From the NCBI GenBank assembly GCA_028283145.1, contig JAPYNY010000053.1, positions 6,175-70,174 of the forward strand: a stretch of DNA of 64,000 nt. Reading direction: 5' to 3'. Shown piece by piece: positions 27,637 through 52,302 of the stretch (positions are counted from its first letter, which is position 1; each line of letters opens with the position of its first letter). This DNA comes from Candidatus Hopanoidivorans cymbastelae. GTDB taxonomy: Bacteria > Actinomycetota > Acidimicrobiia > Acidimicrobiales > Hopanoidiivorantaceae. A model generated the notes under the pieces. It was given only the letters and a program-made list of their open reading frames with translations, ran no database searches and was not told where the DNA came from. A program made the position numbers and the translations under genes.

Positions 27637-28110
27637 ATGTCATTTACCAGTCTGGCCATGCCTGACACGTGTCATATAGGTGATGAAGAGTTGCCTTGGG
27701 CTAATGCCGGGGAGAATATTCGTCTGAAAGTTCTGCACGTCCGCTCGCAAGAGGGTTTGTGGGTCATCCGCAATCAATTCGGCCCTGGCGTGCGGGTGCA
27801 AAAGCACCGTCACACCGGGCCGGTCTTTGGCATTACATCCTCGGGAGCTTGGGGCTATTTGGAGTATGACTATATGAATCGAGCTGGCTCCTATCTGTAT
27901 GAGCCAGCCCACTCAGAGCACAGCCTCTACACCCCCGACGACAACACCGAGCCGACTGACGTTACCTTCGTCATGTATGGCTGCAATCTCAACTTGGATG
28001 AAGACGGCAACGTCGAAAGCGTAACCGACGGGCCGGGCGTGCTTGAAGCCTACTATCTTATGCTGGAAGCGCAAGGCGAGCCCAGACCTAGCAATATTCT
28101 GGTGGACTGA
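27637..28110 (+). CDS. Cupin-fold protein, 2,4'-dihydroxyacetophenone-dioxygenase-like
   Basis: 'VQKHRHTGPVFGITSSGAWGYLEY...YLYEPAHSEH' gives a cupin His pattern. Confidence 0.65.
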   Translation: MSFTSLAMPDTCHIGDEELPWANAGENIRLKVLHVRSQEGLWVIRNQFGPGVRVQKHRHTGPVFGITSSGAWGYLEYDYMNRAGSYLYEPAHSEHSLYTPDDNTEPTDVTFVMYGCNLNLDEDGNVESVTDGPGVLEAYYLMLEAQGEPRPSNILVD

Positions 28111-28677
28111 CGCTGGCTCCGCTGCCTTCTGTCGGGTGTATGTTACACCTATGCGAATTTCAAAGCGTTCCGGGGGACGGTTGCTCGTGTCAAATTTGAG
28201 ATGACTACGCTCTGGTTTGGTTAACGTTCCACCGTCTTCATCTAAAACAGCTAAAGCTTCGTCAAGCGTGTCGTCTTCTGTATCATTCAGTTCAAAGTAG
28301 CACACGGGTAGGCATCCGACTTTGCTGGAAGTCACCCCACCCTCGCCAGGCGCAGCTTCTTGGACGTTAGCTTGATCAGGGAATATGAACGATGTATATT
28401 CGCCGCCTCCGCCAGCTCCGGCGGCTGCTAGCTCCGGGTCGAAGATTTCCCACGGGGCGCATCTGGCTTCCAAGTCGGGAGACTGCTCCTCCAAGTCGTC
28501 GGAGGCACTGCTGGTAATGGCAACTACAATCACCCCGGTGGCCACAGCCATCAACACCAGCACGGCTGTAACTATCAAGGTTTGAAGGGTGATGCCCCGC
28601 TCATCTTCGGCAGGGTTTGCTTCATCTTCAGCAGGGTTAGTTTTTAGGTTGTGTGGAATTGATTGTGTTGGAAACAT
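27913..28677 (-). CDS. Prepilin-like four-Cys protein family, copy A; 3'-truncated relative to copies B/C/D, with the reading frame continuing antisense into the cupin gene
   Basis: Leader ...AEDERG, then 'ITLQTLIVTAVLVLMAVATGVIVVAIT', 'SASDDLEEQSPDLEARCAPWE', 'GGVTSSKVGCLPVCY' and 'RIGVTYTR'. AAGAGG lies 6 nt before the ATG at 28677. Family similarity stops near 28120. Confidence 0.55.
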   Translation of the reverse strand: MFPTQSIPHNLKTNPAEDEANPAEDERGITLQTLIVTAVLVLMAVATGVIVVAITSSASDDLEEQSPDLEARCAPWEIFDPELAAAGAGGGGEYTSFIFPDQANVQEAAPGEGGVTSSKVGCLPVCYFELNDTEDDTLDEALAVLDEDGGTLTKPERSHLKFDTSNRPPERFEIRIGVTYTRQKAAEPASVHQNIARSGLALRFQHKIVGFKHARPVGYAFDVAVFIQVEIAAIHDEGNVSRLGVVVGGVEAVL

Positions 28678-28772
28678 TTTGAGCCTCTTATCGGGTGCGA
28701 AAAATTGGGTGTGAAGAGATGGCAAGAATTGCAAGGTGATAAACAGCCAAAAGCGGAAACTTAAACGCGGTT

Positions 28773-28803
28773 GGGTAGCCCTACATACGGTGCAGGGCTA
28801 CCC
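28773..28803 (-). terminator. Stem-loop just downstream of the LRR gene stop
   Basis: Perfect 10-bp inverted repeat GGGTAGCCCT/AGGGCTACCC with an 11-nt loop. There is no clean U-tail. Confidence 0.45.
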
Positions 28804-28834
28804 TGCAAGCACCAACCGGGCTGTGAACGCTGGT

Positions 28835-30808
28835 TTAGGCTGGGCCGTAGCTGTTGTCAGCGGTGTCCCAGGTTATGGGCACGGCCAGCTGGCTCTGGAA
28901 AAAGACATACATGGTGTCATACCGGTCAACGGCATCCATTACTCCATAGCCATTTGGCGCTATATCTGGATGACAAGGCAGAAGTATCTTGAAATCCTGC
29001 TGTCGCAAGTCGTACGTTATGACAGCCAGCACGCCCGCCAGATTGTCGCAGTCGCTGAGCGTTTCATCGAAGATGCTGTCTGGAGCAGTATCAAAAGCTT
29101 GCTCAGCCGGGGCTAGTATGTTCCAGCCCTGATGCAAAGTCAAAACCATATTTTCACTAACTCGGCCCAGCCCTGCAAATCGTAAGTTGTCGGCGTTGAA
29201 AACCCCTATTTTGTGCATCACCGAAGTGCCACTGTTCAAGATTGAGTTGTCGTCTCGTGTGAAATGAGTGCCCCAACTCTGGGTGCTGGCATCCCAGGAA
29301 TAAATTTCACCAACGAAATTAAGTCCTAAATCACGAGCCATCTGCTGAGCTGAAGTGCCATCGGAGATGACGTTATATGCCCTCCAGCCAAAAATGCTGG
29401 CCTCATTGCCTTCACCATAAAACCTGTTGCTGAAGCCGTTTTGCGCGGTGGCATGATATGGCGTAACGGCGATGACATATTTATCCAAACTCAAAGGATT
29501 TCTGTCATTGCAGGCCAACGCACCGCTGGTCCCAGAGGTGCGTAGGGGTATTGTTGCCTGGGTGGCAGCAGTCTGCCAGAAAAAATTCGTTTCCCAGCTC
29601 TCTACTTCAAATTCAGCAGGCCTGTTAGGGCAAACTCGCTCATGTTCCTCATTGAAGGCATTGTTCTCAGCTTGCTCAATGCTAATCAAATAACCGGTGG
29701 GCGTGAAAGCCGTGCCTGAACTTGGGTCGGTAGGCGCTTCCCAGTCAAGCACCAAATTGCCGCCCGACACAGTTCTAGTCAGGCCAGTTATCGGCGGCAG
29801 CGCATACTGGGAATACCTCTGGCTGTCACACTGCTGGCGACCCAGCGAGAACACGCCAAAGGAAGCGGTGTCCTTGATGCCTGTTACTGGATCAGTTGAA
29901 GGCGGTCGCACATTCCATGAATAGGTGGTGGTCACTTCCTGCAAGGGACGATGCGAGACAGAAAAATCCTCAGGCCAACAAATCCGATTGCCGGAAAGAT
30001 GGAACTCAGGCCTTGCGCGAGCACCTGTATCCATAAAAGTAATCTCACTCAACCAGTCACTTACCCAGCTGCTGTCATCCCCCCACGTCAAGTCATTGTC
30101 GCTGAAAGTGAAATAGTTGACATTTTTCAAATTTCTATATGATCGGGGAATCTCGCCACTGAACTCATTGCGTCTCAGAACAACCAAAATCGTCTTACTT
30201 TCCGAACCAATATCCGGCAAAGGCCCATTGAAAAAATTGTCCTGAGCCAGGAAGCCATAAACATTGCGAAATCCGCTTGGAATAGTGCCGGACATATCGT
30301 TTGAGTTGACGTTGAACCACTGGAGATTGCTCATGCTGGCAAACCCAGCTGGAATCGAACCGGTCAGATTATTGCGCCTGAAACTAGCAAAATTTAAATT
30401 ACTCAAGTTGCCAAAACACTCAGGAAACTTGCCTGAAAAACCATTGATGTCAAACACCAGCCGATCTACGCGCCCCAGCCGGCACAAACTCTGAGGAATT
30501 TCACCAACTAAACCAACAAAATCATCATTGGAAGAACCCTTCATATCTAGCCCAGAGATATAGAACTCGGTACTGGCAGAACCGCTAACACCAATACCTG
30601 CCCAATTCCTAAGCGGTCCCTCACCCCACGTCAAAATAGGGTGATTTACAGAACCATACAAAATACTGCCAGAGCGAAAAACTAAATCATTACGCGCCTC
30701 TACGAGAATCTTGCATTCTCGCCTCAGAGTGCTTACATTGCTCTGGTCGGCTTCTGCTCCGGGGATCCACTCATCGGTGTCGCAACGGTCGGGGTCCAGC
30801 CGCTCCAA
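28835..30808 (-). CDS. Secreted-type plant-like LRR protein with FN3-like and further beta-rich domains (open part; its true start appears detached, see 30825-30959)
   Basis: Repeats of the form 'NNLTGSIPAGFASMSNLQWFNVNSNDMSGTIPSGF' and 'NEFSGEIPRSYRNLKN'. An FN3-like stretch reads 'LTRTVSGGNLVLDWEAPTD'. The track start is a TTG with no SD. Confidence 0.75.
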   Translation of the reverse strand: MERLDPDRCDTDEWIPGAEADQSNVSTLRRECKILVEARNDLVFRSGSILYGSVNHPILTWGEGPLRNWAGIGVSGSASTEFYISGLDMKGSSNDDFVGLVGEIPQSLCRLGRVDRLVFDINGFSGKFPECFGNLSNLNFASFRRNNLTGSIPAGFASMSNLQWFNVNSNDMSGTIPSGFRNVYGFLAQDNFFNGPLPDIGSESKTILVVLRRNEFSGEIPRSYRNLKNVNYFTFSDNDLTWGDDSSWVSDWLSEITFMDTGARARPEFHLSGNRICWPEDFSVSHRPLQEVTTTYSWNVRPPSTDPVTGIKDTASFGVFSLGRQQCDSQRYSQYALPPITGLTRTVSGGNLVLDWEAPTDPSSGTAFTPTGYLISIEQAENNAFNEEHERVCPNRPAEFEVESWETNFFWQTAATQATIPLRTSGTSGALACNDRNPLSLDKYVIAVTPYHATAQNGFSNRFYGEGNEASIFGWRAYNVISDGTSAQQMARDLGLNFVGEIYSWDASTQSWGTHFTRDDNSILNSGTSVMHKIGVFNADNLRFAGLGRVSENMVLTLHQGWNILAPAEQAFDTAPDSIFDETLSDCDNLAGVLAVITYDLRQQDFKILLPCHPDIAPNGYGVMDAVDRYDTMYVFFQSQLAVPITWDTADNSYGPA

Positions 30809-30824
30809 AGACGGCGGCTGAGCA

Positions 30825-30959
30825 CTAGCACCTGAGGTGCCAGCAATTACAACTGCGAGACCCCCCCCCTGCCGATAAAGCCATCACAAAAACCATCGCG
30901 ATAGCCTTACGGCAACCGGATGCCAAAAGCCTCTGAGGGCCAGATGAAATATAAGTCAT
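30825..30959 (-). other. Detached start codon plus signal-peptide n/h-region of the LRR gene (44-codon frame ending after the homopolymer tract)
   Basis: AGGAG (30970-30966), a 6-nt spacer, then ATG at 30959. Translation is MTYISSGPQRLLASGCRKAIAMVFVMALSAGGG... A -1 or +2 nt change in the tract fuses it to the LRR frame. Confidence 0.7.
30861..30869. repeat. Homopolymer tract C9 (G9 on the coding strand)
   Basis: Counted directly: 'gaga ccccccccc tgcc'. Confidence 0.95.
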
Positions 30960-31002
30960 AATAAGCTCCTTTGCTTGAAAAGATGTTTATACATTAAAGC
31001 GT

Positions 31003-31021
31003 ATTATAGCACCTTCCCCCA
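31003..31021 (-). promoter_or_regulatory. Candidate extended -10 promoter TGGGGGAAGGTGCTATAAT upstream of the LRR gene
   Basis: TGn-TATAAT lies about 43 nt upstream of the ATG at 30959. An A/T-rich tract sits just upstream, and a near-identical motif precedes copy B. Confidence 0.45.
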
Positions 31022-31162
31022 TCAATTGCGTTTAACATAACAAAAAATAAAAAATAATTTTTTGCGGTGCTCGTTCAAGCAGACACTTCACCGGCCCAAG
31101 GGGGCACACGCCAACAAGGGCCTAAGCCAGCCTAGACCTACGCTAAAAGCATTGCACCAACC

Positions 31163-31960
31163 TCATTCACGGGAGTCCAAGTGAATCACTTTTGTGCCGG
31201 TGTCTTGAAGTATGCAACCCTCTTGGTCGTTGGTGACTCTGATGACCAGATTGGAACCCTTTGCTTTGGGCGGGATATTCGTACCCACCGGTTCAACAGA
31301 CACTTGATTTATCAGGTCCCATACGTAACCGTTAACTGATGAAAGAATCAGCTCTTCAGCTAAATCCAGAAGAGAGTCATCTGCTGCTGCGACCAGTTGA
31401 GGCCAAGTAACCCCACCTTGCTCTATTATGTCAGCTCTTCCACCTTGGAAGTTTCTTTTGTAGGTTACACCTACACGAACCTGGTTCATTTCCGGTTTTT
31501 CATTGGTGGTAGCAAAACTGAGTTCAATATCGTGGCTTGGGTCCTCTTGTATCCTTTTGACGAGTTGGTCAAGCGTCCTATCTTCAAAAGGCGCGTTAAG
31601 GCTTGTGTGAACACTCAAATAGCAGGGAGCAAAGCAACCTATGCCGCTAGAGGTTACCCCCCCCCTGCCAGGAGTTGGAGTGCCGATTACTTCGGTTTCA
31701 AGCGGTTCACCTCCGCCGATTCCTAAAGCTTCTCGTTCAGGATCGTGGAATTCCCACGGAGCGCACTTGGCTTCCAAGTCGGGGGACTGTTCGCTTAGAT
31801 CGTCAGAAGCGCTGTTGGTGATAGCTACTACAACCACCCCGGCTGCCACAGCCATCAGCACCAGCACAGCCGTTACTATCAGGGTTTGGAGGGTGATGCC
31901 CCGCTCATCTCTAGACGGATTTGACAACTGCTTCAGCACGATTTGGGGATTTCTGAGCAT
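31163..31960 (-). CDS. Prepilin-like four-Cys protein family, copy B
   Basis: 'MLRNPQIVLKQLSNPSRDERG|ITLQTLIVTAVLVLMAVAAG...', then 'CAPWEFHDP', 'GGVTSSGIGCFAPCY', 'VRVGVTYKR' and 'VGTNIPPKAKGSNLVIRVTNDQEGC'. In-frame ATGs at 31969 and 32020 are alternative starts. Confidence 0.7.
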   Translation of the reverse strand: MLRNPQIVLKQLSNPSRDERGITLQTLIVTAVLVLMAVAAGVVVVAITNSASDDLSEQSPDLEAKCAPWEFHDPEREALGIGGGEPLETEVIGTPTPGRGGVTSSGIGCFAPCYLSVHTSLNAPFEDRTLDQLVKRIQEDPSHDIELSFATTNEKPEMNQVRVGVTYKRNFQGGRADIIEQGGVTWPQLVAAADDSLLDLAEELILSSVNGYVWDLINQVSVEPVGTNIPPKAKGSNLVIRVTNDQEGCILQDTGTKVIHLDSRE

Positions 31961-32058
31961 TGTGAACATCCTTTTGGCATATTGGACTGCGGGAGACAGG
32001 GGCGACAATCCGATAATCAACTGCCTAACGATTTAGTGGCACTCTCCTCCACCAAAAA

Positions 32059-32078
32059 ATTCTAGCACCGCTCCCCCA
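32059..32078 (-). promoter_or_regulatory. Candidate extended -10 promoter TGGGGGAGCGGTGCTAGAAT upstream of copy B
   Basis: TGn-TAGAAT with the same G-rich element as at 31003-31021. Confidence 0.4.
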
Positions 32079-32136
32079 GTGCTTGAGTCCTGAGCCAAAA
32101 TATAAAATTCAAAACAACTTGGCAGCCAATAAACGC

Positions 32137-32877
32137 CTATGGTGCTTGGTTCTCGTCTGGCACCTGGTTTAAGACTCCAGGGTCTGATTCTTCTTCTACG
32201 GAGTTAACCTGGGGTACGTCTGATTTTGTGTCGGCAATGAAGCAACTGTCTTTGTCACCGGTTACCTTGATACCCAGAGAGGAAACCTCGTCAGTGGGTG
32301 GAATGTGCGTGCCCAGTTGTTCTTTGACCTCGCCACCTACAACTATTTTGTATCCATAGCCGGTGGAGGAATCATCGTCTTGTTGCAGGCCAGTTGCAGT
32401 GCCTCGTCGATAAGTCACGCCCACTCGAAATTCTCTGATACCGCTTTCTGGTGGGCGGTTGGAGGCATCAAATTTAAGCCTTGAAACCCCCACGATCGGA
32501 GCTTGAGCAACAAGGTCATCCAGCGTTAATCCATTTGGCGGCATTGTAACGTAACACGGGGCTAGACATCCTATTTTGCTGGAGGTGACCCCTCCCCTGC
32601 CAGGCATGGGAGAGCCCACGACCATGCCATTTTCATCCACTTCAATCAGCCCGCCGCCTCCAACCCCGGCTGCTTCCAGTTCTGGATCGTGTATCTCCCA
32701 CGGGGCGCATTTGGCTTCCAAGTCGGGCGACTGTTCCTCCAAGTCGTCCGATGCGCTGTCTGTGATGGCCACTATGACAACCCCTGCCGCCACAGCCAAA
32801 AGCACCAAAACAGCGGTGATGACAAGCGTTTGAAGCGTGATACCCCGCTCTGCTGTATTCGGGCTTGGTCTCAGCAT
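32137..32877 (-). CDS. Prepilin-like four-Cys protein family, copy C
   Basis: 'MLRPSPNTAERG|ITLQTLVITAVLVLLAVAAG...', then 'CAPWEIHDP', 'GGVTSSKIGCLAPCY', 'FRVGVTYRR' and 'GTHIPPTDEVSSLGIKVTGDKDSC'. The ORF-track start at 32913 is an alternative. Confidence 0.7.
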   Translation of the reverse strand: MLRPSPNTAERGITLQTLVITAVLVLLAVAAGVVIVAITDSASDDLEEQSPDLEAKCAPWEIHDPELEAAGVGGGGLIEVDENGMVVGSPMPGRGGVTSSKIGCLAPCYVTMPPNGLTLDDLVAQAPIVGVSRLKFDASNRPPESGIREFRVGVTYRRGTATGLQQDDDSSTGYGYKIVVGGEVKEQLGTHIPPTDEVSSLGIKVTGDKDSCFIADTKSDVPQVNSVEEESDPGVLNQVPDENQAP

Positions 32878-32980
32878 GCGTGCTGTCGTGCACTCTTGAA
32901 AAACCATAAACATCCGTTAGAGCATGGGAAAACAGAGCACGGCTCCACGCAGCACGAAAAACTCGAAGAGCCGCGGTCTG

Positions 32981-49798: not shown

Positions 49799-51088
49799 AT
49801 GGAGAACCCAATGTCTGAACTGAAGCACTATGCCATCATTTCAGCAGACTGCCATGCCGGTCTGCCCACCGAGCAATATCGCCCCTATCTTGATTCGCGC
49901 TATCACCAAGCCTTGGATGATTTTCTAGCTGAACGGCAGGCCATGCTGGCTGAGCGTGCAGCCGCCGGGCAGCGCCACGAGGAATACGAAGAGGAGTGGA
50001 ACACCCAAGAAGGCTTTGCCGGCGGTTGGGATGCTCACACCCGCGACAAGGAACTGGACAATGACGGAGTCGTGGGAGAAATTATGTTTCCCGACTCCGA
50101 TTCCATCTCGGGCACAACCAGTCCGCCTTTCGGGGCTGGTATAGGCGCCACAGGAGACCTTGAAGCCGATCTGGCCTTTGCCGGAGCCCAAGCCCACAAT
50201 CGCTGGCTGGCCGAACTCTGCTCCGAAAGCCCACTCAGACGGGCAGGAGCAGCTTTGGTTCCAATTGTCTTTGATGTTGACAAAGCTGTTCAAATGATTG
50301 AAGAAGCCAAAGCAACCGGGCTGAGAGGGGGAATCATCATCCCCGCCATGTGGAACGACTATGAGCCGTATCATCACCCCAAGTACGACCCGGTTTGGGA
50401 TGCCTGTGCCAGCTTGGATATGCCAGTTCATGTCCATTCAGGCCCAGCTCCCAGAGAAGATTACCTGGACAATATGGGAATCTATGTGAGCGAAGTCATT
50501 TGGTGGGCTTATCGTCCGTTGCGCTTTATGCTGTGGGGGGGGGTGTTTGAACGCCATCCAAACCTGAAGTTCGTAGTAACTGAAAGTGGCGCTTTCTGGG
50601 CGCCCGACATGCTGTGGAAGATGTCCGATCAATATGAATCAATCGGTGGCGCTGCCAAGATTGCCAAACAGCTCGGAGCGGCCATCCCCCGCAATCCGGT
50701 GGAATACTTCGACCGCAACTGCTTTCTAGGCGCTTCCACCATGAAGCGAGTTGAAGTCGGACGTCGTTATGCCATTGGAGTTGACAACCTCATGTGGGGC
50801 AATGACTTCCCGCACCCCGAAGGCACTTGGCCCCATACCGCCGAATATCTCCAAAACACGTTTCACGACGTCCCTGTGGATGAAACAGCCAAAATTTTGG
50901 GGGAAGTGGCAGCCGAGGTCTATAACTTTGATCTTGAAGCACTGACACCTGTAACTGAGCGCATCGGGCCAACTCCCCAAGATTTAGGGCAAGACGCTGA
51001 ACAGAATATCACCAAGTGGGCCAGAGCCAAAGCAGCAGGTCGATTCTGGGATACCGGAGCCGACCCGGCTGAGGCAGCTGCAATTTAA
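49799..51088 (+). CDS. Amidohydrolase-2 (ACMSD-like metal-dependent hydrolase/decarboxylase) family protein
   Basis: 'ISADCHAG', 'VHVHSG' and 'MWGNDFPHPEGTW'. It is a paralogue of the next gene. Confidence 0.8.
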   Translation: MENPMSELKHYAIISADCHAGLPTEQYRPYLDSRYHQALDDFLAERQAMLAERAAAGQRHEEYEEEWNTQEGFAGGWDAHTRDKELDNDGVVGEIMFPDSDSISGTTSPPFGAGIGATGDLEADLAFAGAQAHNRWLAELCSESPLRRAGAALVPIVFDVDKAVQMIEEAKATGLRGGIIIPAMWNDYEPYHHPKYDPVWDACASLDMPVHVHSGPAPREDYLDNMGIYVSEVIWWAYRPLRFMLWGGVFERHPNLKFVVTESGAFWAPDMLWKMSDQYESIGGAAKIAKQLGAAIPRNPVEYFDRNCFLGASTMKRVEVGRRYAIGVDNLMWGNDFPHPEGTWPHTAEYLQNTFHDVPVDETAKILGEVAAEVYNFDLEALTPVTERIGPTPQDLGQDAEQNITKWARAKAAGRFWDTGADPAEAAAI

Positions 51089-51105: not shown

Positions 51106-52302
51106 ATGGACAGATACTTAGTCATTTCATCTGACTCCCACGCGAGCGGACTCCCCGATGACTACAAACCCTTCATCGACCCGAAATTCAGAGCAGCCTA
51201 TGACGAATGGGTAGCCGATGAAGAGCTGCAGCAACGTCGTCGGGCGGAGCACACCGGGCAGACCATTTACGGAGAGGATGCCCTGGAAGACTTTGGACAA
51301 GTAGAGGAAGTAGCCACTGGCGGCTTGGATGGAGCTCATGACTCTGAGCGGCGCTTGAAGGAAAATGATGCTGACGGGGTGGTAGCTGAAGTGATTTTTC
51401 CCGGAGGTGGCGGTGATACAATAATGCCGTTCAATGCCGGATTGATGACCTACCAATACAAAGCAAGCCCGGAGACTTGGCTGGCAGGCTGTCGCGCCTA
51501 CAATCGCTGGCTGGCAGACTTTTGCACCCAAGCGCCGGGCAGACGCGCCGGTGTGGGATTGCTGACAGTAGATGACATCGACATAACCGTCCAAGAAGTT
51601 AAAGCCATAGCTGAGATGGGCTTGTTCGGCGGCGTTTTGATACCGTCGGGCGTCGGCGACAACGTGCTGTATGACCTGCCCCACTACAACCATCCCAGAT
51701 ATGAACCGCTCTGGGAAATTTGCGAAGAACTGCAAATGCCGGTCCACACCCATTCAGGCTGGACTCCCAACTTCGGCAATTATCCAGGATCGCTGGGCAT
51801 CTTTTTGTATGAAGTCCCTCTACGGGCACATCGTCCTCTGTGGATGCTGCTCTGGTCGGGGGTCTTTGAGCGCCATCCTGGGCTGAAATTTGTAATGACA
51901 GAACAGGGATCCACTTGGATTCCGCCAGCCCTAGCCAAAATGGACTACCACTACAACCTGCCCATGTTCAGCCATCTGAGGCGCACCCTGCCACTCCAGC
52001 CCAGCGACTACTTCAAACGGCAGTGCTATGTGGGGGCTTCATTCTTGCGCCCATCAGACAGCGACCTGCGCTATGAAATTGGGGTTGACAAGTTGATGTG
52101 GGGCTCAGACTATCCACACATGGAAGGCACTTGGCCTTACACCGAGCAATCGCTCAGGGAATCCTTGGGCCATGTTTCCGAGGATGAAGTAACCATGATT
52201 GTGGGAGCCACTGCCGCGCATGTTTACAAATTTGACGTCGAGGCGCTCACACCCATCGCCAACCAGATTGGCCCCACGATCACTGCGCTGGCCGCAGCCT
52301 GA
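51106..52302 (+). CDS. Amidohydrolase-2 family protein (tandem paralogue)
   Basis: 'ISSDSHAS', 'VHTHSG' and 'MWGSDYPHMEGTW'. Confidence 0.8.
   Translation: MDRYLVISSDSHASGLPDDYKPFIDPKFRAAYDEWVADEELQQRRRAEHTGQTIYGEDALEDFGQVEEVATGGLDGAHDSERRLKENDADGVVAEVIFPGGGGDTIMPFNAGLMTYQYKASPETWLAGCRAYNRWLADFCTQAPGRRAGVGLLTVDDIDITVQEVKAIAEMGLFGGVLIPSGVGDNVLYDLPHYNHPRYEPLWEICEELQMPVHTHSGWTPNFGNYPGSLGIFLYEVPLRAHRPLWMLLWSGVFERHPGLKFVMTEQGSTWIPPALAKMDYHYNLPMFSHLRRTLPLQPSDYFKRQCYVGASFLRPSDSDLRYEIGVDKLMWGSDYPHMEGTWPYTEQSLRESLGHVSEDEVTMIVGATAAHVYKFDVEALTPIANQIGPTITALAAA

Follow-up and report, generated by a model that had tools for sequence, protein, structure and literature searches.

The present analysis asks why, in a stretch of DNA from the uncultured Candidatus Hopanoidivorans cymbastelae (Acidimicrobiia; contig JAPYNY010000053.1 of assembly GCA_028283145.1), a gene for a leucine-rich repeat (LRR) protein is cut off from its start codon and signal peptide by a run of nine G residues (G9), and whether such a frameshift is an error, a dead gene, or a working device. 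The window, by which we mean the whole 64-kb stretch that was analyzed, carries a leader with all the usual signals for initiation on one side of the run and a long, well-preserved reading frame on the other. The frameshift is real, being neither an artefact nor an ordinary pseudogene. The reading we favor, with modest confidence, is that of a slippage-dependent switch with a DNA-level component, in which the exported protein would be made only after slippage on the tract, and classic ON/OFF phase variation is partly supported. Replication slippage and slippage at the RNA level are not separated by the data, and both may operate.

The locus is described here in its minus-strand orientation. 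An extended -10 promoter element, TGcTATAAT (31011-31003), read directly from the DNA, lies about 45 nt 5′ of an ATG at 30959, and a Shine-Dalgarno (SD) element, AGGAG (30970-30966), stands before the same ATG with a 6-nt spacer and is identical in all ten loci compared below. The -10 element is kept in all haplotypes (as TATAAC in haplotype H2) within a spacer otherwise full of substitutions and indels; a simple -35/-10 consensus scan did not pick it up, and the terminator matches from that scan were at background level. The ATG opens a leader open reading frame (ORF) of 44 codons (30959-30825), MTYISSGPQRLLASGCRKAIAMVFVMALSAGGGSRSCNCWHLRC, which runs from the ATG through 33 sense codons, the G9 homopolymer (30869-30861, C9 on the plus strand), and 11 out-of-frame codons to a TAG stop at 30827-30825. 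This leader encodes the n-region and the first half of the h-region of a predicted signal peptide, and the tract at which the frame shifts encodes Gly-Gly-Gly of the h-region. The LRR frame is open from merely 5 codons 5′ of the tract, where it reads WLYRQGGGLAVVIAG after a stop, and its first ATG, GTG, or TTG is a TTG at 30808, from which 657 codons extend to 28835; inspection of the sequence before this TTG revealed no SD-like element. A predicted signal-peptidase motif, A-S-A, is found in the LRR frame at 30829-30821, and cleavage would fall before the Q codon at 30820-30818. Removal of one G gives an ORF of 707 amino acids (aa) and addition of two gives one of 708 aa with the signal peptide; the frame accordingly toggles with repeat number, G8 and G11 being full-length or ON lengths, and G9, which yields a 44-aa peptide, and G10 being OFF. 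The coordinates given for the SD, ATG, tract, stop, and TTG in a first-pass annotation of this DNA were all correct on re-reading, and so were its statements that the TTG is the only start in the LRR frame and lacks an SD, and that deleting one G or adding two fuses the frames. Under a first-order Markov model of the window, 0.73 G/C runs of at least 9 would be expected; three are present, all exactly 9 long, with no run of 8 or 10 in the window, and two of them (30861-30869 and 31657-31665) lie 800 bp apart inside one 5-kb, four-gene island of low guanine-cytosine (GC) content.

Comparison with intact members of the family points to the fused frame as the older state. The homologs compared were P0002, which has 34% identity to the window LRR protein with 99% coverage, and the representatives P0263, P0264, P0267, P0270, and P0271, retrieved with the C-terminal part of the LRR protein. 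Relatives of the P0263 type are 54% identical over that C-terminal part and have GGG in frame. The nearest intact homologs have in common an N-terminus of the form R-R-x-L-A-V-V...G-G-G-L-V/A-V...[AV]-S-A-Q, in which the [AV]-S-A-Q motif is invariant or near-invariant. When repaired to G8, the window N-terminus aligns to them gap-free over the whole stretch that begins with the basic residues, includes GGG, and ends with the A-Q cleavage motif, with R17, G32, G33, L34, A46, and Q47 invariant, and regains the spacing typical of the family. Because no gap is needed to match the repaired signal peptide to those of family members that are intact, the fused frame is, judged from this alignment, ancestral, and the tract by the same alignment codes for a Gly-Gly-Gly that is conserved within the hydrophobic core of that peptide. 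Most simply, the ancestor was in frame with GCA-GGG-GGG-GGT (G8), which places the present state one slip (+1 G) away. The earlier view that a signal peptide had been split from its protein body is thereby borne out, the alignment with seven intact members of the family running gap-free across the junction. Most homologs have a twin-arginine-like W/G-R-R motif where the window has R-K, and the export route could be Sec or Tat.

The same site has been affected more than once. In a distant array with 34% identity to the window protein (locus L003, ENA ERZ25068752), five LRR paralogs stand in tandem, four of which encode V-L-G-G-G-L-V with an interrupted run, G6AGG. In the remaining one, the fourth gene of the array, an unbroken G9 stands at the homologous Gly-Gly-Gly site and shifts the frame, which a change of +1 or -2 G would restore. 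This gene still has an SD, an ATG, and a leader of its own, is undamaged apart from the tract, and is 57-62% identical to its sisters. Whether the tract in L003 is G9 or G10, a long G run has by this comparison evolved twice at the homologous Gly-Gly-Gly.

The simplest doubt about a broken homopolymer is that the break was introduced by sequencing or assembly and that the true tract is G8 or G11. G tracts are error-prone, and Penno et al. themselves caution, in their account of bifidobacterial tracts, that G-tract lengths in databases may be wrong (PMC9187656). The ORF that starts at the TTG belongs to a protein cluster of 17 members, 15 of them listed; among those listed, 13 are full-length (twelve of 657 aa and one of 722 aa), all beginning at TTG 30808, and the other two are shorter fragments. 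Through exact-protein look-ups, DNA was obtained for nine further loci, from JGI (3300009880, 3300009889, 3300009892, and 3300009907), Logan (SRR10406092, SRR10406093, and SRR22391397), and NCBI (GCA_028278945.1 and GCA_028278905.1), and when genome and metagenome contigs were scanned, both with the protein and with a 24-nt pattern from the flank, no further locus was found. Literature searches on the sample and assembly accessions were likewise without result. Together with the window these loci make up five haplotypes, differing at up to 99 of 2,342 aligned positions (up to 4%). The tract is G9 in nine of the ten loci, the window counted, and G10 in the tenth (L009), so that it is out of frame in every one. 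L009 is identical to L004 over 7,974 nt save for this G10 in place of G9, a disagreement that error could also produce; the two may be one sample assembled twice, in which case the reads were probably mixed, or one strain in two samples. Set against error is the recurrence of one out-of-frame length in five haplotypes from three assembly pipelines, and also the fact that the two other G9 tracts of the window are in frame. One of these, in an amidohydrolase gene (50535-50543, plus strand, encoding L-W-G-G-V), served as a control and shows that such runs are tolerated in ordinary genes of this genome; all 8 members of its cluster read the tract region in frame. A systematic error confined to the LRR tract in three pipelines is not credible. 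The possibility of an artefact, which the first-pass annotation had kept as its trivial alternative, is effectively excluded by the finding of G9 in five haplotypes from JGI, Logan, and NCBI, and we consider it very improbable indeed. The 722-aa cluster member, P0134, was examined as a candidate ON allele and rejected, having the same TTG start and differing only by a 3′ fusion into the neighboring gene parC.

If the gene were simply dead, its two parts would be expected to decay. The LRR ORF (1,974 nt) is of equal length in all haplotypes, with no indel and no stop in any, while the 300-nt spacer upstream has many indels. There are 42 segregating sites in the ORF, of which 26 are at third codon positions, and the changes are 25 synonymous and 17 non-synonymous; when the same number and type of changes were placed at random, 12 synonymous changes were expected and none of 20,000 simulations reached 25 (P<5e-5). 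The ratio of non-synonymous to synonymous substitution rates (dN/dS) is 0.11-0.5 across pairs and 0.18 for the most divergent pair, compared with at most 0.09 in flanking housekeeping genes and 0.24-0.28 in two neighboring paralogs. The leader, too, stays in frame in all haplotypes, although it has taken many substitutions and an indel of 9 nt (in-frame), and its SGCRKAIA/FVMALSA segment has six synonymous third-position changes. On this pattern of substitution, purifying selection maintains the leader and the body alike. The absence of stops is by itself weak evidence because the strains are close in the ORF (synonymous divergence, dS, of 0.05 or less), and the chance of seeing no stop among 42 substitutions under neutrality is 0.23. 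An ordinary old pseudogene is nevertheless rejected on the synonymous excess and the absence of stops and indels, and the LRR gene shows neither a dN/dS near 1 nor the extra lesions by which pseudogenes are recognized. It had been proposed at the outset that G9 fixed in relatives and accompanied by further disabling mutations would mean a plain pseudogene; G9 is indeed nearly fixed, but no further disabling mutation is found in the gene and its ORF is under purifying selection.

Among haplotypes, leader and promoter spacer diverge far more than the ORF: the final 69 nt of the leader have about 14 changes, and 1,971 nt of the ORF have 42. The haplotypes form a mosaic (four-gamete) pattern, and the tract and the next 100 nt are invariant. 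Judged from these haplotypes, the mosaic indicates recombination, by which alleles could spread.

The switch that we favor would work as follows. Replication slippage to G8 or G11 in a minority of cells would give the full-length exported protein, as in phase variation, and/or a minority of transcripts losing one G would give the same product. MutSL is absent from almost all Actinobacteria and NucS, as described in the reports cited, cannot correct indels (PMC8228993, PMC5290159), so a G9 tract should be unstable in this background. If the ON state were disfavored under the conditions sampled, lineages would be held at the two OFF lengths between G8 and G11, and G9 and G10 are exactly the lengths observed. 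A companion case may exist next door. The LRR gene belongs to a four-gene accessory island (27913-32913, minus strand) comprising parA, parB, the LRR gene, and parC and lying between UPF0182 and Cupin_7 genes, and the second G9 tract of the window (31665-31657, minus strand) is in frame within parB, where it encodes R-G-G-V of a conserved PGRGGVTSS. Four haplotypes have this tract as an in-frame G9 and one has it as G8 (L004 2150-2157, L009 2149-2156), and the G8 splits parB into 104 + 83 aa, so that parB shows both ON and OFF lengths among haplotypes. The tract in this adjacent, membrane-anchored paralog would behave in the same manner as that of the LRR gene, with ON as its default state.

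The first-pass annotation had proposed a phase-variation switch, and that proposal stands in part: tract length does vary (G9/G10 here, G9/G8 in parB), but no ON allele is present in the ten loci. Several other observations weigh against the reading that we favor. Neither G8 nor G11 was found in any of the ten loci, and an exact look-up of the predicted ON protein (the G8 repair) of the five haplotypes in a collection of 15 billion proteins found it absent. With one third of observations expected to be ON under neutrality, the failure to see any among about 6-7 independent observations has a probability of about 0.06-0.09, which is mildly unlikely. Because no ON-length tract was found, reversibility at the DNA level is deduced rather than observed and is unproven. 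The tract is G9 across haplotypes separated by 1-5% at synonymous sites, whereas classic contingency tracts usually vary between strains. If L004 and L009 are one read set assembled twice, the G9/G10 difference could be assembler noise, and the contig name of L003 is of long-read style, so its G9 might be a miscalled G10. A fixed out-of-frame G9 next to a strong RNA hairpin, described below, fits slippage by RNA polymerase equally well. The island moreover bears lesions outside the LRR tract, beginning with three different ones in parB in three haplotypes, namely the G8 (L004/L009), another frameshift (L002), and a deletion (L010). In the window parC (27913-28734, minus strand) is truncated, 282 nt being missing at about 28117 relative to JGI contig L006 (5692-5973), although the two have 0 mismatches over about 8 kb outside the gap; the missing segment comprises the 3′ third of parC and the spacer to Cupin_7, the parC ORF of the window runs antisense into Cupin_7, and the gap reflects either a deletion truly present in the strain or a collapse during assembly. 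Finally, P0134, encoded on a 13,449-bp NCBI contig, fuses the LRR gene to parC, the last 8 codons of the LRR gene being replaced by read-through into an alternative parC frame, a sign of deletion or recombination between LRR gene and parC.

The history of the island bears on the same question. Its GC content is 0.49-0.52 compared with about 0.55 for the rest of the window, and a relative (L011, 13180-13306) with a UPF0182 protein of 78% identity lacks it at the syntenic site, where Cupin_7, MsrA, and SnoaL come straight after the UPF0182 gene. By this comparison the whole four-gene cluster is an insertion. Homologs of the UPF0182 protein also place the organism in the Acidimicrobiia. It could be that the LRR gene is a recent pseudogene within an accessory island under loss, created by a +1 G slip in a common ancestor or spread by recombination, with an ORF that has not yet had time to decay. 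The near-fixation of G9 with no ON allele seen would be as expected, the closeness of the strains (dS 0.005-0.05, with the 0.23 chance of no stop) would account for an open frame, the separate lesions in parB and parC and the LRR-parC fusion would be further steps of the same loss, the island is dispensable, as its absence from L011 illustrates, and mosaic haplotypes would offer a route for the allele to spread. This explanation has difficulty with the strong synonymous excess (25 where 12 were expected, P<5e-5), with zero indels in 1,974 nt next to 300 nt that have many, and with a promoter, SD, ATG, and leader frame that were kept although the leader has diverged greatly, its indel being in-frame and several of its changes synonymous. 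It must further suppose that the homologous site was hit independently in a distant and otherwise intact paralog, and that the lesion fell by chance at the single most reversible site of the gene. We regard recent pseudogenization as unlikely, although well short of negligible.

The region immediately 5′ of the tract suggests a second way in which a fixed G9 could be put to use. A predicted RNA hairpin of 20 bp with a 6-nt loop and 5 G-U pairs extends over the 47 nt at 30915-30869 (minus strand), its last pair taking the first G of the tract, and because of the five G-U pairs it is specific to the sense RNA. Its free energy (in kcal/mol) and z-score are -27.8 and -6.15 in haplotype H1, -25.9 and -3.5 in H3, and -21.9 and -2.4 in H2. 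Under programmed recoding, G9 would be a fixed functional allele giving a steady, low level of secreted protein, with no ON/OFF switch in the population. By one route the nascent hairpin would shorten the rG:dC hybrid and RNA polymerase would realign forward, producing a constant fraction of G8 transcripts; by another, ribosomes would shift +1 on GGG-GGG-G, helped by a prfB-like AGGGGG at the start of the tract, which is a candidate internal SD-like element. The conservation of an out-of-frame G9 in all five haplotypes while the flanks diverge, together with purifying selection on the ORF, is what such recoding would predict, as is a strong hairpin ending at the first tract G in three variants.

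There is a precedent for the geometry. In the transposase of the Roseiflexus insertion sequence IS630, a stem-loop 5′-adjacent to a 10-nt slippery motif leads to transcripts one nucleotide short, and 9-nt runs of A or T are described as the length for efficient slippage by bacterial RNA polymerase (PMC5009743). To the extent that the case is set out in that report, the LRR locus resembles it in having a hairpin immediately 5′ of a 9-10-nt motif, in that the productive event likewise loses one nucleotide, and in the conservation of out-of-frame DNA; G9 also fits a slippery motif about as long as the RNA:DNA hybrid, 9-10 bp (PMC5009743). The cases differ, on the same account, in that the motif there is T5C5 in a mobile element and here is G9 in a cellular gene for a secreted protein, where the hairpin is predicted, covariation is absent, and DNA-level variation in length coexists.

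Other details fit recoding less well. Across three distinct hairpin sequences, 14 pairs are invariant, 4 are changed on one side only, 2 are broken in some haplotypes, and none shows a compensatory change. Prediction at the parB tract and at the tract of the L003 paralog gave no comparable hairpin upstream (z about 0), and the L003 tract needs the opposite shift (+1 G). Efficient bacterial slippage has been documented on A/T runs, and length variation is at this locus seen directly in the DNA. Hybrids of rG:dC are much more stable than those formed on A/T runs, which counts against recoding at the RNA level. As to the ribosome, neither a prfB-type 0-frame stop nor an obviously slow codon was found at the shift site, the 0-frame stop being 12 codons downstream; GGG makes up 21% of Gly codons and GGGGGG is used at 3 of 125 Gly-Gly, and a “hungry codon” argument is weak because GGG is not rare and GGGGGG is not enriched. 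Programmed recoding is for these reasons a possibility to which we give real but minor weight. Its fuller form, in which G9 is the working allele of a conserved recoding signal, with hairpin-driven loss of one G in a set fraction of transcripts and maybe +1 ribosomal slippage, we put forward tentatively and think rather unlikely. If true, it would mean that a secreted-protein gene of Acidimicrobiia is expressed obligatorily by hairpin-stimulated transcriptional slippage on a G run, a mechanism so far documented for an insertion-sequence transposase on T5C5 and for A/T runs.

Whichever level slippage acts at, the product that it would restore has the features of an exported protein. The body of 657 codons from the TTG (30808-28835, minus strand) has plant-type LRRs, an FN3-like domain, and a C-terminal domain of about 180 aa. 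Matches to Pfam LRR_1 are above the cut-off (25.5 bits against 20.6) and those to LRR_8 just below (24.3 against 27), and the best sequence neighbors outside the family are plant LRR receptor kinases. An AlphaFold2 (AF2) model of the C-terminal 378 aa has a pLDDT of 81.7, and Foldseek with the same 378 aa found weak FN3-like matches, the best with E 1.2e-3. The combination of LRR, FN3-like, and C-terminal domains is an extracytoplasmic architecture. The C-terminal domain is the very last part of 79 representative proteins, the longest of which has 3,803 aa; it had no match in Pfam or NCBIfam and no confident structural neighbor, and may be a sorting or anchoring domain. In the window its approximately 180 aa (28838-29380) are beta-rich, with invariant W, W, W, W-N, C, and C residues and the motifs QGWN, DCDNLAGVLA, LPCHP, and PITWD.

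This architecture also bears on whether slippage is needed at all. Ribosomes that stop at the leader TAG (30827-30825) could restart at TTG 30808, 17 nt downstream, and produce a cytoplasmic LRR protein 4 residues shorter than the predicted mature form. The TTG is invariant, is close behind the leader stop, and is chosen by all gene callers, and re-initiation would account for selection on leader ORF and body alike. The TTG, however, lacks an SD and its position is not conserved in homologs, and the LRR and FN3-like parts are joined to a C-terminal domain shared with proteins that all carry signal peptides. Re-initiation is accordingly, in our judgment, highly unlikely.

Slippage at the tract, which remains our preferred explanation, can be compared with several known systems. 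Poly-G/C loci of Campylobacter, Neisseria, Haemophilus, and Helicobacter likewise have a hypermutable repeat in the 5′ coding region of a surface-protein gene, a frame that depends on repeat length, clustering of tract-bearing genes, and lengths that differ among strains. Those loci, in contrast, have both ON and OFF lengths over wide ranges, and the LRR gene has only OFF lengths (G9, G10), and no host-associated lifestyle has been documented for the organism of the window. Of the hallmarks of a contingency locus, then, the tract, the frame toggle, and the length polymorphism are present here and the co-occurrence of ON and OFF lengths is not. In the opa genes of Neisseria the repeats are in the region of the leader peptide, comparable to the LRR tract. 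Within the Actinomycetota, glpK of Mycobacterium tuberculosis reportedly undergoes a reversible homopolymer frameshift at a 7C tract. The homopolymer tracts of M. tuberculosis, as far as they are described, are similar to the present one in that an indel acts as a reversible loss-of-function switch in an actinobacterium without MutSL, and dissimilar in that those genes are ON by default and metabolic or regulatory, the tracts are shorter, and no signal peptide is split off.

The closest parallel is in Bifidobacterium breve, in which sortase-dependent pilus genes are turned ON and OFF by replication slippage at intragenic G tracts (Penno et al. 2022, PMC9187656). In strain UCC2003, the Sec signal of bbr_0113a/b and bbr_1889a/b is encoded by one ORF and the pilin body by another, with a G tract (G11/G10) joining them (PMC9187656). 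The resemblances to that system, as there described, are many: both organisms are Actinomycetota, a strong promoter, SD, and ATG drive a short upstream ORF with a Sec signal, a G homopolymer precedes a long ORF whose product is secreted or at the surface, the downstream “start” has neither SD nor signal, the gene is OFF in the reference sequence, and a product is gained mainly when one G is dropped (PMC9187656). The present locus departs from that account in having G9 and not G10/G11, an LRR/FN3-like product without LPXTG and with no sortase nearby, an uncultured host among the Acidimicrobiia, and, as far as the B. breve tracts are described, a strong RNA hairpin abutting the tract, and it is known from sequence alone. 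A scan of the 707-aa sequence for LPXTG was negative, and the neighboring genes are parA, parB, parC, UPF0182, and Cupin_7, with no sortase among them. Because there is no LPXTG motif and no sortase, the LRR locus is an analog of the B. breve system and not a member of it. The remark with which analysis of this DNA began, that such switches are mostly known from other bacteria rather than from actinobacteria, has been overtaken by the B. breve report (PMC9187656) and what is described of the M. tuberculosis tracts. A literature search found no report of a homopolymer switch of this type in Acidimicrobiia, and a homopolymer frameshift switch that splits off the signal peptide would be of a known kind but first found here for that class.

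If the tract works as proposed, stochastic expression of surface or secreted proteins through homopolymers would occur not just in host-adapted pathogens and gut bifidobacteria but also in uncultured Acidimicrobiia of the environment, and would affect a eukaryote-like LRR protein of a kind usually tied to cell-cell or host interaction. There is also a practical consequence for annotation. Gene callers misannotate this locus, the 13 full-length calls listed all starting at the SD-less TTG with the signal peptide lost, and “pseudo-pseudogenes” of this type would be systematically misread in metagenomes because the calls begin at the TTG and drop the signal peptide. With its conserved G9, hairpin, in-frame G9 neighbor, and several haplotypes in public read sets, the locus is a natural test case for slippage at the DNA versus the RNA level.

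The other genes of the island form a family of their own. parA (32137-32913, minus strand), parB (31163-32020, minus strand), and parC are mutually paralogous and belong to a family with 188 homologs; none of the three matched Pfam or NCBIfam, and an Rfam search of the island was likewise negative. Their proteins have an N-terminal transmembrane helix and a conserved N-terminal segment, ERGITLQTLIVTAVLVLMAVA, which is pilin-like but without Glu at +5 and is followed in the family by SDDLEEQSPDLEAKCAPWE and PGRGGVTSS..GC..PCY. Elsewhere in the window, the amidohydrolase gene with the control tract has a tandem paralog (51106-52302) that reads LWSGV where the first reads LWGGV. In L003, two intergenic G9 tracts (490-498 and 553-561) are found within a direct repeat, agcgggct-G9-tgcgcttagg, upstream of an epimerase gene, and could represent either additional slippery sites or a regulatory element that is repeated.

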